This document shows positions 48,092-51,532 of a DNA stretch of 64,000 nt, piece after piece. The DNA comes from Xanthobacteraceae bacterium. GTDB lineage: Bacteria; Pseudomonadota; Alphaproteobacteria; Rhizobiales; Xanthobacteraceae. Both the position numbers and the translations under genes were made by a program. The stretch covers positions 38,183 to 102,182 of the forward strand of contig SCUB01000020.1 in NCBI GenBank assembly GCA_004297465.1, given 5' to 3'. Below the pieces are notes generated by a model. The model was not told the origin of the DNA. It made no database searches and saw only the letters and a program-made list of their open reading frames with translations. Position 1 is the first letter of the stretch; the number at the start of each line of letters is the position of its first letter.

Positions 48092-49233
48092 TGGTGAAGA
48101 CAACACACTTCCAGGTCGACAATGGCGACATGACTCTGATCGAGCTTGAATCCGGTCGCCGCATTCTGGTCGACATCAAGATTCGCGTTGCAACCGCCGA
48201 CGACGGCGATGAAGACATCCCCCCGGTCGGGGACCAGCTGCGCGAGCGGCTTAAGCGCGACGACAAAGAGCGGTTCTACGTCGACGCTTTCCTGCTGACG
48301 CATCCTGACAAGGATCACATCTGCGGTCTGCGCGAGCACTTCCACCTGGGCGATCCGTCGACTTGGTCGAAGAAGGACGACAAGATTATTATCCGCGAGA
48401 TGTGGTCGTCGCCAATCGTGTTTCGGCGAACGTCCAAGAACCACAAGCTTTGTGATGATGCGGTCTCCTGGTGTGACGAAGCTCGCCGCCGTGTCGCCAA
48501 GTTCAAGGCGGAGGGCGCGCAGGCCGACGGCAACCGCATTCTCATCATGGGCGAGGACGTCGACGGCAAGACTGATGATCTGGGCGCCATCCTGATCAAG
48601 ACGGACGAGGTCTTCTCCAAGATCTGCGGTGTGGTCGACTTTTCCTTTGAAGCACGTCTTTTGGCGCCGATGAAGGCGGACAACGATGACGAAGAAGAGG
48701 TCCTCACCAAGAACAACTCCAGCGTCGTCATGCGGATTGATCTTAAGCTTTGGAGCACCACAAAGGCTCGCTATCTGATCGGCGGTGACGCCGAGGTCGC
48801 GATCTGGGAAAAGCTGTGGGATCGCCACAAGTCTCGCAAGTCCTGGCTCCAATATGATGTCCTCATCGCACCGCATCACTGCTCCTGGCATAGCCTGTCG
48901 TGGGACAGCTGGTCGGATCTCGGCGAGAAAGCCAAGGTTTCGCCGAATGCGCGCAGCGCGCTCGGCCAGCCGCTGCTCGGCGCACTGATCGTCTCGAGCA
49001 GTAAGCCAATCAAAGACGACAAGGATGACCCGCCGTGCATCCGCGCGAAGCGCGAATATCTTGATATTCTCACGGAAGTGAACGGCGAATTCCGTTGCGT
49101 CTGCGATGGTGCGAGCGACGAGCCGATGGAAATCGAGATCCTGTCGGCCGGACCGAAGGTCAAGCGCCTGAAGGTCGCCGCGACCGTTGCGGCAACCACA
49201 GGTCTCGGTAGCCAGCCTTTCGCGCATGGCTGA
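48091..49233 (+). CDS. second ComEC-type MBL-like protein ending in ...GSQPFAHG (gene 3 of the operon)
   Basis: LLTHPDKDHICGL (HxDxDH, codons 48301-48318), GGDAE and APHHCSWHS parallel the motifs of gene 1. The C-terminal residue is Gly (codon 49228-49230). The stop overlaps the start of gene 4 by 8 nt. Confidence 0.75.
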   Translation: MVKTTHFQVDNGDMTLIELESGRRILVDIKIRVATADDGDEDIPPVGDQLRERLKRDDKERFYVDAFLLTHPDKDHICGLREHFHLGDPSTWSKKDDKIIIREMWSSPIVFRRTSKNHKLCDDAVSWCDEARRRVAKFKAEGAQADGNRILIMGEDVDGKTDDLGAILIKTDEVFSKICGVVDFSFEARLLAPMKADNDDEEEVLTKNNSSVVMRIDLKLWSTTKARYLIGGDAEVAIWEKLWDRHKSRKSWLQYDVLIAPHHCSWHSLSWDSWSDLGEKAKVSPNARSALGQPLLGALIVSSSKPIKDDKDDPPCIRAKREYLDILTEVNGEFRCVCDGASDEPMEIEILSAGPKVKRLKVAATVAATTGLGSQPFAHG

Positions 49234-51532
49234 CCAGGAAGGGCAAGGGGAGGAGGGCGCCCCTCTATCGCTTTCGGTCAGCCGGGCGCTCCGACTGATC
49301 AAGGTGCACGACTCGGTCGTTGGCGTCACCGTCGTGGGGGTGATGGCCGACGCCGTCGTCGTCTCCGTGCGCATCAAGACGGAAATGCCTGCAGCGTGGC
49401 GCGCCGCCGGCCAAAGCCCGTCGGGTGTCCGCATATTCGAGGATGTGCTGTTTTGTTTCGACGCCGATTACCCGGTCAACCCGCCTGCGATTCGACTGAG
49501 ATCCGACTTCGATCGTGCCCATCCGCATCTGCAGCCTGGCTCTGCTGACAGTCCGCCCGAGCCGTGTCTAGTCATCGGATCGCCGCGCGAGCTGCTAAGG
49601 CTTCGCGGCATCCTCGGCCTTGTCGATCAGCTTGTCGAGTGGGTCGACCGCGCCGCTATGGTGCAGTTGATTGATCCTGAGCAGGGATGGGAGCCCGTTC
49701 GGCGGGACCACATCGACGATATCGTCGTCGCCGAGCCGTGTTGGATCCGCGGCCTGATGGGCCCGGAGGGCGGGTGCAAAGCCTTTCCGCTTCAGTATTT
49801 CGCGGCTCTCGAAAACAAGCAGCCGAACTATTGGACCATCCTGCGAGCATCCGCGACAATTCCCCTCAACGAAAAACTGACCGATCGCCTCAGTTATCGG
49901 GAGCACAAGGCGGTTCGCATCGGCCACGGATTGGCGCTGATCGCTTGGCCGTCGAAACGGCCGGACGGTTCTGCGTTCGTCGCCGACCGTTGGTTTCCCG
50001 AGACGGTCTCGACCGTCTCCGAGCTTCTGCAGCGTGCGCAGATGCTCGGCTGCCGCGATCATCTTGAGGCAAAGCTCACTCTCCTGCAGAGCAGGTTGGC
50101 CAAGTTGAAGACAGCTGTGCCCTTGCCCCTGATTGTGATGCTGCTGGCCAGGCGTCCCTACAAGGTCATCAAGACCCACTCCGAGATTGAGCTCTGTCCC
50201 TATTTGATCGAAATCGACGGCGGCGACGATCTTTCGAGCGCGAGCACAAAGCCCGTCAGGATCGTGGCACATCGCGATGACATCTCCACGAATCTTCTGC
50301 GTCAAGCGTCCGGAGACGACGCGCTGTCAAACCCGGCGGCGTGGGCGCTTATCGGTTGTGGCAGTGTCGGCTCGAAACTAGCGATCCATATGGCGCGCGC
50401 TGGAAGGGCGCCGAGCTCGCTGATCGACCGAGGTTGGATGTCGCCGCACAATTTTGCCCGGCATGCTGTGTTTCCTGGCGGCGCCAACAAGGATTTCGGC
50501 TTGGTCGACAGCAAGGTCAACATGGTTGGCGAAGCCTGCGAGGAGCTTGGCTCGAAACCGGCCCGGCACAGCGTCGACGTCGTCACGCATATGCAGGCTC
50601 ACAAGTCTCTTGCCAGCCTCGTCGCCGACAACGCGTTTGCGATCGTGAATGCGACAGGGTCGGCGACCGTGCGCGAGGTTCTAGGCGCCGAGATCTCCCA
50701 CACGCGGGTGGTCGAAGTCTGTCTGCTCGGCATCGGAGGTGTCGGCATGATGACCATCGAAGGACCCGGCCAAAACCCTTCGTCTACCGATCTTATCTGC
50801 GAGTGCTACCGCCACATCTGGCAATCGACCGACTTAGCTGATGAAGTCTTTCGCAGCACCGGTGAGACGATCGCGTTGGGGCAGGGGTGTTCGGCGATCA
50901 CGCTGCCGCTGACGGATTCACGGATCTCAATGTTCTCAGCTCCTTTCACCGAGAAGCTGATCAAGCTGCAAGCCGACGGCATGCCCGACGTTGGCGCGTT
51001 GATCTTGGGACGTGTGCAGGCGGACGGCCTTAGCCAGGCTTGGACACAGACCCCCGTAGAACCCCGCATCATTGTGCCGCTCCAGTCCGGCAATCGGCAG
51101 GTTAGAATCAGCCCGGCGGTCGAGCGCGTGATCCTCGAAGAGATCGCGAAGAAGCCAAAGTCGGAGAACGGCGGCATAATCTATGGCCGCTTCTGTGACA
51201 TCACCGAAAGCTTCCATGTGGTCGGGACGCTGCCGGCGCCGCCGGACAGCAAGTTCTCGAAACATGAGTTCGTGCTCGGCACCAAGGGTCTAAGGCCGAT
51301 GCTGGATAAGCTCATCAAGGGTTCGGGCGGCGCGCTCTATCCGCTCGGTACATGGCACAATCATCTTGTGCCAAGTGAACCGTCGACCAAAGACATGAAC
51401 ACGGCGGCCTTGCTTTCCGGAATGCAATTTTTTCCGTTGCTCATGCTCATTCACACGCCAGGAGGATATAGCGTGCTGACCATAGAAACTATCGACAAAA
51501 CTGAGAACAATTTGTCTTTCAAAACAACTTGA
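49226..51532 (+). CDS. E2(UBC)-like / E1(ThiF)-like / JAB(JAMM) triple-domain fusion protein (gene 4 of the operon)
   Basis: E2-like HPH...PEPCL (His 49520-49528, Cys codon 49565-49567). Rossmann GCGSVG (50354-50371). JAMM-like E (51164-51166) and HNHLVPSEPSTKD (51356-51394). 768 aa from the ATG at 49226. Confidence 0.8.
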   Translation: MADQEGQGEEGAPLSLSVSRALRLIKVHDSVVGVTVVGVMADAVVVSVRIKTEMPAAWRAAGQSPSGVRIFEDVLFCFDADYPVNPPAIRLRSDFDRAHPHLQPGSADSPPEPCLVIGSPRELLRLRGILGLVDQLVEWVDRAAMVQLIDPEQGWEPVRRDHIDDIVVAEPCWIRGLMGPEGGCKAFPLQYFAALENKQPNYWTILRASATIPLNEKLTDRLSYREHKAVRIGHGLALIAWPSKRPDGSAFVADRWFPETVSTVSELLQRAQMLGCRDHLEAKLTLLQSRLAKLKTAVPLPLIVMLLARRPYKVIKTHSEIELCPYLIEIDGGDDLSSASTKPVRIVAHRDDISTNLLRQASGDDALSNPAAWALIGCGSVGSKLAIHMARAGRAPSSLIDRGWMSPHNFARHAVFPGGANKDFGLVDSKVNMVGEACEELGSKPARHSVDVVTHMQAHKSLASLVADNAFAIVNATGSATVREVLGAEISHTRVVEVCLLGIGGVGMMTIEGPGQNPSSTDLICECYRHIWQSTDLADEVFRSTGETIALGQGCSAITLPLTDSRISMFSAPFTEKLIKLQADGMPDVGALILGRVQADGLSQAWTQTPVEPRIIVPLQSGNRQVRISPAVERVILEEIAKKPKSENGGIIYGRFCDITESFHVVGTLPAPPDSKFSKHEFVLGTKGLRPMLDKLIKGSGGALYPLGTWHNHLVPSEPSTKDMNTAALLSGMQFFPLLMLIHTPGGYSVLTIETIDKTENNLSFKTT

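Follow-up and report, generated by a model that had tools for sequence, protein, structure and literature searches.

The locus described here lies in a 64,000-nucleotide stretch of contig SCUB01000020.1 (positions 38,183 to 102,182 of the forward strand) from the Xanthobacteraceae bacterium assembly GCA_004297465.1. We refer to this whole stretch as the window, and positions are counted from its first letter. Four genes follow each other head to tail on its plus strand. They encode MBL2, a protein of 355 amino acids with a metallo-beta-lactamase (MBL) fold (46171..47238, +), a membrane protein of 283 amino acids (47240..48091, +), MBL1, a second MBL-fold protein of 380 amino acids (48091..49233, +), and the product of cap2_3 (49226..51532, +), which is the subject of this analysis. 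The successive junctions are a 1-nucleotide gap, a 1-nucleotide overlap and an 8-nucleotide overlap, the last formed by the stop of MBL1 and the ATG of cap2_3.

The cap2_3 open reading frame (ORF) translates into 768 amino acids followed by a stop codon. This single chain contains an E2-like domain, a linker of the Atg7/Cap2 type, one E1 adenylation domain and a JAB metallopeptidase domain, and the catalytic residues that such domains should have are all in place and conserved throughout the family. The gene is very likely the Cap2-Cap3 fusion of a 6A-MBL anti-phage system, with a Cap2/Cap3-like action on MBL1.

An earlier note, made from the nucleotide sequence and its translations, had placed the ORF at 49226-51532 (+) and had located a series of catalytic motifs in it. 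Upon recomputation, all of these coordinates proved exact: the HPH residues 99-101 (49520-49528), C114 (49565-49567), the glycine-rich GCGSVG at residues 377-382 (50354-50371), C555 within GQGCSA (50888-50890), E647 within SENGG (51164-51166), and the JAB motif H711-N-H713, six residues, S720-T-K-D723 (51356-51394). An in-frame TTG is present upstream of the ATG, at 49187. The NCBI entry identical to the 768-residue protein begins at the ATG and is named [quoted passage not shown]. In a collection of 5.8 billion proteins, the closest other sequence is at most 60% identical.

Family, domains and catalytic residues of the fusion protein

Searched against NCBIfam, the protein matched NF058523, the curated equivalog model “anti-phage 6A-MBL system cap2_3 protein”, with 549.7 bits (cut-off 320 bits), and the match covered positions 3-665 of the 665 positions of the profile. 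The family is large: 351 clusters at 50% identity were found with E ≤ 1e-30, nearly all of them full length. Members occur in 64 plasmid records, including plasmids of Acinetobacter, Burkholderia, Rhizobium and Clostridium, and a search of a phage collection for cap2_3 homologues found none.

The public name suggests a different function, namely that of a ThiF/MoeB-type adenylyltransferase in thiamine or molybdopterin biosynthesis, and a weak match to Pfam ThiF (26.0 bits, under the cut-off of 28.1) is in line with it. However, the ThiF/MoeB equivalog models scored between 12 and 19 bits against cut-offs of 152-510, with 18.6 bits for TIGR02356 (cut-off 275.25) and 18.7 bits for NF006395 (cut-off 159). 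The protein also has additional E2 and JAB domains and is encoded in a prophage-like island, and no ThiS/MoaD or thiamine genes were found among its neighbours. The failed equivalog cut-offs and the domain architecture refute this reading, and we give it practically no chance. The ThiF-type public names for cap2_3 are misleading and older than the NCBIfam 6A-MBL models. Plasmid copies of cap2_3 carry the names “ThiF family adenylyltransferase” or “Mov34/MPN/PAD-1 family protein”.

The earlier note had proposed E2-like, ThiF/E1-like and JAB regions, and all three are borne out by hidden Markov models (HMMs), predicted structure and residue conservation. The E2-like domain (49283..49732, +) corresponds to residues 20-169, which match Pfam Prok-E2_A with an E value of 6.7e-23 and include H101 (49526-49528) and the cysteine C114. 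It is followed by a linker domain (49733..50290, +; approximately residues 170-355, with approximate boundaries) which is defined by the AlphaFold2 fold and Foldseek. The E1 adenylation domain, a ThiF/Atg7-like Rossmann fold (50291..51061, +; approximately residues 356-612), was delimited by profile, Foldseek and conservation, and the JAB/JAMM metallopeptidase domain (51086..51490, +; approximately residues 621-755) by PADLOC, AlphaFold2/Foldseek and conservation. The PADLOC JAB models match residues 621-728, the best of them with an E value of 9.2e-14 over residues 624-728. With Pfam Prok-JAB the protein gave no match at E ≤ 1, and the domain was confirmed through PADLOC, its family members and its structure.

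Conservation was assessed in two sets of sequences. The near set contains 56 homologues with 39-60% identity; the divergent set contains 78 full-length cluster representatives with 27-49% identity, obtained by exhaustive search. Among the 56 homologues, Pfam finds Prok-E2_A in all, ThiF in 50 and Prok-JAB in 28. When a profile of the family was run against the sequences of the PDB, it recovered the E1 domain of Cap2 (8.6e-9) and MccB (4e-5), and a profile of the JAB domain recovered the Cap3 entry 9ILD (3e-9). A phmmer search of the PDB sequences with the single JAB domain sequence gave only spurious antibody matches.

The full-length AlphaFold2 model, built from the alignment of 56 sequences, has a mean predicted local distance difference test score (pLDDT) of 85. 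In a Foldseek search of the PDB, it is closest to Cap2 of Enterobacter cloacae (7TO3_A, E 3.5e-19), with 671 aligned columns that span the E2-like domain; Cap2 fragments, BubCD, UBA3, UBA5, MccB, ThiF and Atg7-Atg10 (4GSK) follow at lower rank. The linker is a folded alpha/beta region, mostly with a pLDDT of 85-95, and lies inside both the Cap2 7TO3 alignment and the Atg7-Atg10 4GSK match. In Cap2, the linker has been described as homologous to the N-terminal domain of Atg7 (bioRxiv 10.1101/2022.03.31.486616). A separate model of the JAB domain (residues 604-768, pLDDT 89) is most similar to Cap3 bound to a CD-NTase (9ILD_A, E 6.8e-8, TM score 0.68/0.73), with AMSH, Rpn11, CSN5 and BRCC36 as the next matches. 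The comparison with Cap2 and Cap3 by AlphaFold and Foldseek that the earlier note had suggested has thus returned these two proteins as the best matches.

These matches, and those of the PADLOC CBASS E1-E2 and JAB models at 1e-11 to 1e-14, would also be expected if Cap2 and Cap3 had become fused in a type II CBASS or Pycsar operon. PADLOC 2.0 has no 6A-MBL model, and its partial CBASS matches alone could mislead towards CBASS. However, its E1-E2 matches span the Rossmann region only, Cap3 has one residue more in the JAB loop, and in 78 of the 79 related loci the partner gene codes for a 6A-MBL enzyme. Pfam, PADLOC and NCBIfam found no CD-NTase/cyclase or CBASS effector among the neighbouring genes. 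The protein thus has the fold expected of a CBASS component (7TO3_A and 9ILD_A) in an operon of another composition, and membership in CBASS or Pycsar is very improbable.

We attach an equally low probability to a system of the Bil or Bub type, in which a separate ubiquitin-like protein would be conjugated. Bacterial anti-phage systems with E1, E2 and JAB proteins do exist, and BubCD is among the Foldseek matches. Against this, the four-gene cluster contains no separate gene for a small ubiquitin-like protein, the protein has a single E1 adenylation domain, and Cap2 leads the matches by ten orders of magnitude. In Bil systems, E1, E2 and JAB are each encoded by a gene of their own (PMC11601596); here the enzymatic domains are fused, and the other genes of the cluster code for two MBL-fold proteins and a membrane protein, which does not agree with Bil membership.

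The residues expected at the active sites are conserved to a different extent in the two sets. In the near set, H99, P100, H101, C114, the three glycines of the E1 loop, C555, E647, H713, S720 and D723 do not vary, and H711 is missing from a single homologue (55 of 56). In the divergent set, H101, P113, C114, G377, G379, G382, R412, K430 and C555 are invariant in all 78 representatives, as are the JAB residues E647, H711, H713, S720 and D723. H99, by contrast, is kept in just 14 of the 78, the others having Leu or Phe, and P100 in 56, so that the HPH triad is clade-specific. The “UBC-style HP(N/H) triad” that had been read into residues 99-101 therefore holds for this clade; across the family, only its last residue, H101, is kept. 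Judged from the alignment, the family pattern H101-[ILV]-[QN]-P is more likely the counterpart of the HPN motif of E2 enzymes. The distance from H101 to C114 is 13 residues in 60 of the 78 representatives.

The remaining catalytic assignments of the earlier note fare well in the same data. Invariance in all 78 representatives supports C114 as the E2 catalytic cysteine, the three glycines 377, 379 and 382 as the GxGxxG loop of the E1 domain, and E647, H711/H713, S720 and D723 as the JAMM residues. C555, which had been offered as a speculative crossover-loop cysteine, gains support from its invariance and from its position in the AlphaFold2 model, where residues 549-558 form a loop of low confidence that links two helices. 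Due to this low confidence and its place between helices, the loop looks as expected of an E1 crossover loop. In Cap2, the catalytic cysteines are C548 on the crossover loop of the E1 domain and C109 of the E2 domain (bioRxiv 10.1101/2022.03.31.486616).

The note had also pointed out that the JAB motif, HxH-x6-S-xx-D, is one residue shorter than the textbook form with x7. This spacing was found in all 78 representatives. In HMMER alignments, Cap3, an archaeal Rpn11-like protein and Pyrococcus JAMM1 each need a one-residue insertion relative to the JAB profile of the family. All ligands predicted for a JAMM/MPN+ zinc site are present, with x6 instead of x7, and the shorter loop is a true family trait that leaves every zinc ligand in place. 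Significant similarity to known HMMs and structures and conserved motif residues are thus found for the protein, where their absence would have spoken against the domain assignment.

The MBL and membrane-protein partners

MBL1 is the 6A-MBL enzyme of the cluster and the presumed substrate of cap2_3. It scores 422.3 bits against NCBIfam NF058524 (cut-off 220), contains the metal motif H71-P-D73-K-D75-H76 (48301-48318, +) and ends in H379-G380 (49225-49230, +). Weak matches to MBL domains of the Avs1a, LmuA and ComEC types suggest, together with the MBL fold, that it is a putative nuclease or phosphodiesterase.

A scan for related loci, using one genome per species, yielded 79 loci. In 78 of these, an MBL1 homologue lies directly upstream of cap2_3, and the junction is mostly a stop/start overlap of 4 or 8 nucleotides or falls within 10 nucleotides. 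The cap2_3 gene is thus translationally coupled to an MBL enzyme with an invariant C-terminal His-Gly: across 71 unique MBL1 sequences, H71, D73, D75, H76, H262, H263, H379 and G380 do not vary. The proteins have a flexible tail rich in Ala, Gly and Thr which ends in G-x-[QE]-[PA]-[LF]-x-H-G. The C-terminus is exactly HG in 58 of 78 loci, and in the other 20 HG is followed by 1-6 residues. Such extended ends include HGCGSDLA (in genomes of the Roseobacter group), HGCRNKDS, HGGDD, HGGSDDED, HGS and HGI, and plasmids of Acinetobacter baumannii and Burkholderia glumae carry copies with the ends HGAS and HGSD. The extended tails were found in loci L001, L024, L028-L037, L052, L053, L057, L059, L072 and L078, and also in L084 and L085.

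By their sequences, the tail-extended orthologues, approximately a quarter of the total, look like precursors that need C-terminal processing. The earlier note had suggested that the JAB domain processes a substrate tail, and the distribution of HG ends (58 of 78) and of HG ends with 1-6 further residues (20 of 78) lends this idea independent, if sequence-based, support. MBL2 and its paralogues, which are also found without cap2_3, end in acidic tails that contain no Gly. A similar pattern is known from CBASS, in which the C-terminal Gly/Ala of cGAS is conserved only in operons with Cap2/Cap3; the C-terminal residue is needed for thioester formation and conjugation, and Cap3 cuts at the same position (PMC10097602). 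The contrast between the Gly-less MBL2 and the HG-ending MBL1 mirrors this behaviour of cGAS. By analogy, the HG pattern supports a Cap2-like adenylation and conjugation of the MBL1 C-terminus, with the JAB domain as the putative trimming or reversing activity.

As Cap2-type systems need no beta-grasp ubiquitin-like protein and the role of MBL1 as substrate rests on analogy, it is also conceivable that cap2_3 conjugates something else, such as a phage protein, its membrane neighbour or itself. MBL1 would then be a co-operonic effector, and its HG tail could serve, for example, in docking. The small membrane protein, present in 74 of 79 loci, would be a candidate. However, an invariant HG with variable short extensions is the pattern expected of an activated C-terminus, MBL2, a paralogue not tied to the presence of cap2_3, lacks the HG, and the membrane-protein families fall into three sequence types whose C-termini are not conserved. 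We therefore regard this possibility as distinctly unlikely.

The 283-residue membrane protein has four hydrophobic segments according to its hydropathy and is probably a four-pass protein. A longer ORF of 352 amino acids that begins at 47033 is probably over-extended; NCBI also calls the 283-residue form, as a hypothetical protein. Neither this protein nor the other two membrane types described below has a match in Pfam, NCBIfam, PADLOC or PHROGs, and an identification with PDC-M48A could not be confirmed. Homologues of the 283-residue type occur in 58 of the 79 loci, nearly always directly downstream of cap2_3 and on the same strand. The window differs in that the membrane-protein gene lies upstream of MBL1. 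Within the 283-residue type, R68, G71, E124, Y160, G161, R164, N165 and L166 are invariant.

Where the 283-residue type is absent, its slot is filled by another multi-pass membrane ORF of 211-241 amino acids, which comes in two types. The first of these (8-9 loci) is a remote homologue of the 283-residue type (hhalign probability 95.8%, E 8e-9); the other (7-8 loci and a plasmid of Burkholderia glumae) has no detectable similarity to it. Examples of membrane-protein genes are found at 8348-9235 in L003, 8286-8972 in L023, 5755-6390 in L059 and 5643-6362 in L085. Taken together, a small multi-pass membrane protein of 210-300 amino acids accompanies 74 of the 79 loci, and four of the remaining five end at a contig edge.

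MBL2 has no C-terminal Gly. It matches Pfam Lactamase_B and, over its full length and with 512.7 bits, the PADLOC candidate PDC-M48B. Its homologues adjoin 6A-MBL operons on the Acinetobacter baumannii plasmid pOXA58_005078, on the Burkholderia glumae plasmid pWSGX1 and in L024, L038 and L069; further coordinates are 5694-6764 in L084 and 6409-7488 in L085. In L080-L083, an MBL of the PDC-M48B type and the same membrane protein form a two-gene module without cap2_3. The Bradyrhizobium module (L080-L082; in L080 at 4918-5994 and 6001-6762) lies in a prophage region beside phage lysis genes, and the Mesorhizobium module (L083; 4898-5977 and 6001-6786) in an integrase-flanked island with HipAB.

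The modules without cap2_3 suggest that the MBL enzymes, and not the conjugation machinery, are the functional partners of the membrane protein, and the four-gene order of the window is one permutation of a modular set. A more far-reaching version would be that 6A-MBL is a membrane-associated system of three or four components, in which cap2_3, similar to Atg7 and Atg3, tethers the MBL enzyme to its membrane partner or to a lipid, in analogy to the lipidation of Atg8. If true, such tethering would put a nuclease at the site of phage DNA entry or at the early vesicle of jumbo phages. We consider this version rather unlikely, albeit less so than the conjugation of a substrate other than MBL1.

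The island around the cluster

In this uncultured Xanthobacteraceae bacterium, the 6A-MBL system forms part of the cargo of a prophage-like island and sits at the island's edge. The left edge of this island, which has a lower GC content, is marked by a tRNA-Gln(ttg) gene (45356..45430, +; identified with ARAGORN), and the four-gene cluster starts approximately 740 nucleotides past it. The GC content drops from approximately 0.69 to 0.49-0.60 from around 44-46 kb and stays low through the end of the window. No repeat of the tRNA-Gln 3' end that could mark the other att site was found within the window, and the far end of the island probably lies beyond position 64000.

The AT-rich spacer 5' of the cluster contains a candidate sigma-70-like promoter (46017..46046, +; 9/12 in a consensus scan). 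The scan for promoters and terminators returned nothing above the expectation from shuffled sequence, and the site is a candidate only. Between the tRNA-Gln gene and the defence cluster lies the remnant of a LysR-type helix-turn-helix protein (45721-45903, +) with an in-frame stop; its match to Pfam HTH_1 (E 9.3e-5, 22.7 bits) is below the cut-off. In the high-GC part 5' of the tRNA, an ORF of 823 amino acids (42673-45144, +) has no match in Pfam, NCBIfam or PADLOC. It is overlapped by long ORFs on the opposite strand, which are common in high-GC DNA, and is a candidate gene only.

Downstream of cap2_3, the minus strand encodes a Tle1-like protein of the DUF2235 phospholipase family (52337-53554, E 8.3e-57) and, after it, a protein of 470 amino acids that has no family match (53584-54996). 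This pair is flanked by the defence cluster on one side and by the gene of a large serine recombinase (55354-56820, -) on the other, and may be further cargo or a toxin module. Further along come genes for a large terminase subunit (59757-61232, -) and for a ParB-N6 methylase (61636-63021, -). DUF2924 and DUF3489 proteins are also encoded on the minus strand of this region, which contains a DUF5681 protein as well.

Proposed action and comparison with known systems

If the fusion protein acts on MBL1 as proposed, its E1 domain would bind the MBL1 tail and adenylate the carboxylate of G380. C555 on the crossover loop would then take over the acyl group as a thioester and hand it on to C114 of the E2 domain, and MBL1 would finally be joined to an amine on some target, which could prime or relocate the MBL enzyme during phage infection. 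The JAB domain, acting in cis, would strip the short extensions after HG where these are present, exposing the Gly, and might also undo the conjugation and in this way restrain the system. We infer the adenylation, transfer, conjugation and JAB steps from the analogy to Cap2/Cap3 and the CD-NTase in type II CBASS.

Several observations weigh against such a close analogy. At the sequence level, the similarity to Cap2 is limited to the E1 domain, with approximately 15% identity overall, and the Pfam models ThiF and Prok-JAB both stay below their cut-offs for this particular protein. The putative equivalence of C555 and C548 of Cap2 rests on a flexible-loop position in the model and not on an inspected superposition. 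Finally, the analogy to CBASS leaves the near-constant membrane protein unexplained. Membership in 6A-MBL itself is indicated by the domain architecture, by a score above the NF058523 cut-off, by the adjacent NF058524 gene and by the conserved catalytic residues.

The protein is a divergent, mis-annotated member of a known and curated defence family that is cited as experimentally validated, and the present assignment corrects the public annotation as a thiamine biosynthesis protein ThiF. The MBL1 His-Gly across 78 loci is what one would expect to see if the MBL enzyme itself took the place of a ubiquitin-like protein and were processed and deconjugated by the fused JAB domain. The small membrane protein is a near-constant, uncurated companion of the system, the second MBL paralogue an occasional one, and both could guide experiments on target and mode of action. 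The near-constant membrane protein is the only potentially new angle of the locus.

According to papers that cite their work, van den Berg et al. (Cell Host Microbe, 2024) reportedly described 6A-MBL as a defence system. A literature search on the 6A-MBL mechanism found nothing beyond works that cite this study, and a conference report and a jumbo-phage review contained nothing on the subject. A 2026 review cites the study for the experimental confirmation of anti-phage defence by 6A-MBL (PMC13276650), and a 2025 preprint of the same group counts 6A-MBL among the known anti-jumbo-phage systems (bioRxiv 10.1101/2025.09.30.679545). According to the Corbett laboratory, “Type II CBASS, Pycsar and MBL pathways” use an Atg7-related E2-E1 fusion and conjugate their own enzymes to unknown targets (PMC11601596).

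Cap2 (7TO3/7TQD) and Cap3 (9ILD) of type II CBASS are the best fold matches, and C114 and C555 compare with C109 and C548 of Cap2. As in type II CBASS, the predicted substrate would not be a beta-grasp ubiquitin-like protein but an enzyme whose C-terminal Gly is conserved. However, Cap2 and Cap3 are separate proteins in CBASS and are fused here, the partner is an MBL enzyme and not a CD-NTase, and there is no cyclic-nucleotide effector. The low sequence identity and the JAB loop between HxH and Ser, which is shorter by one residue here, further distinguish the fusion from Cap2 and Cap3.

Atg7 with Atg3 or Atg10 shares with the fusion an E1 of the homodimer type, a crossover-loop cysteine and a module, similar to the N-terminal domain of Atg7, that positions the E2. 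These are separate proteins, act on the beta-grasp substrates Atg8 and Atg12 and have no fused peptidase. Bil (BilABCD) and Bub systems have the anti-phage context and the E1, E2 and peptidase chemistry in common with it, but they use a dedicated ubiquitin-like protein and separate enzymes, and Bub works with oxyester intermediates and a serine peptidase.

The closest correspondence is with 6A-MBL. The earlier note had called the fusion of writer and eraser in cis unusual; this is not the case, as a triple-module protein with E2, E1 and JAB domains adjoining an MBL has defined operon type 6a since its description by Iyer, Burroughs and Aravind in 2006 (PMC1779556) and has an NCBIfam model of its own. 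Due to this earlier description, the triple fusion matters little as a finding in itself. Like other 6A-MBL loci, the locus in the window combines E2, E1 and JAB in the same order on one polypeptide with an adjacent specialised MBL gene, and it is carried by a mobile element. It differs from most of them in its gene order, which is MBL2, membrane protein, MBL1 and cap2_3 here and mostly MBL1, cap2_3 and membrane protein in its relatives.

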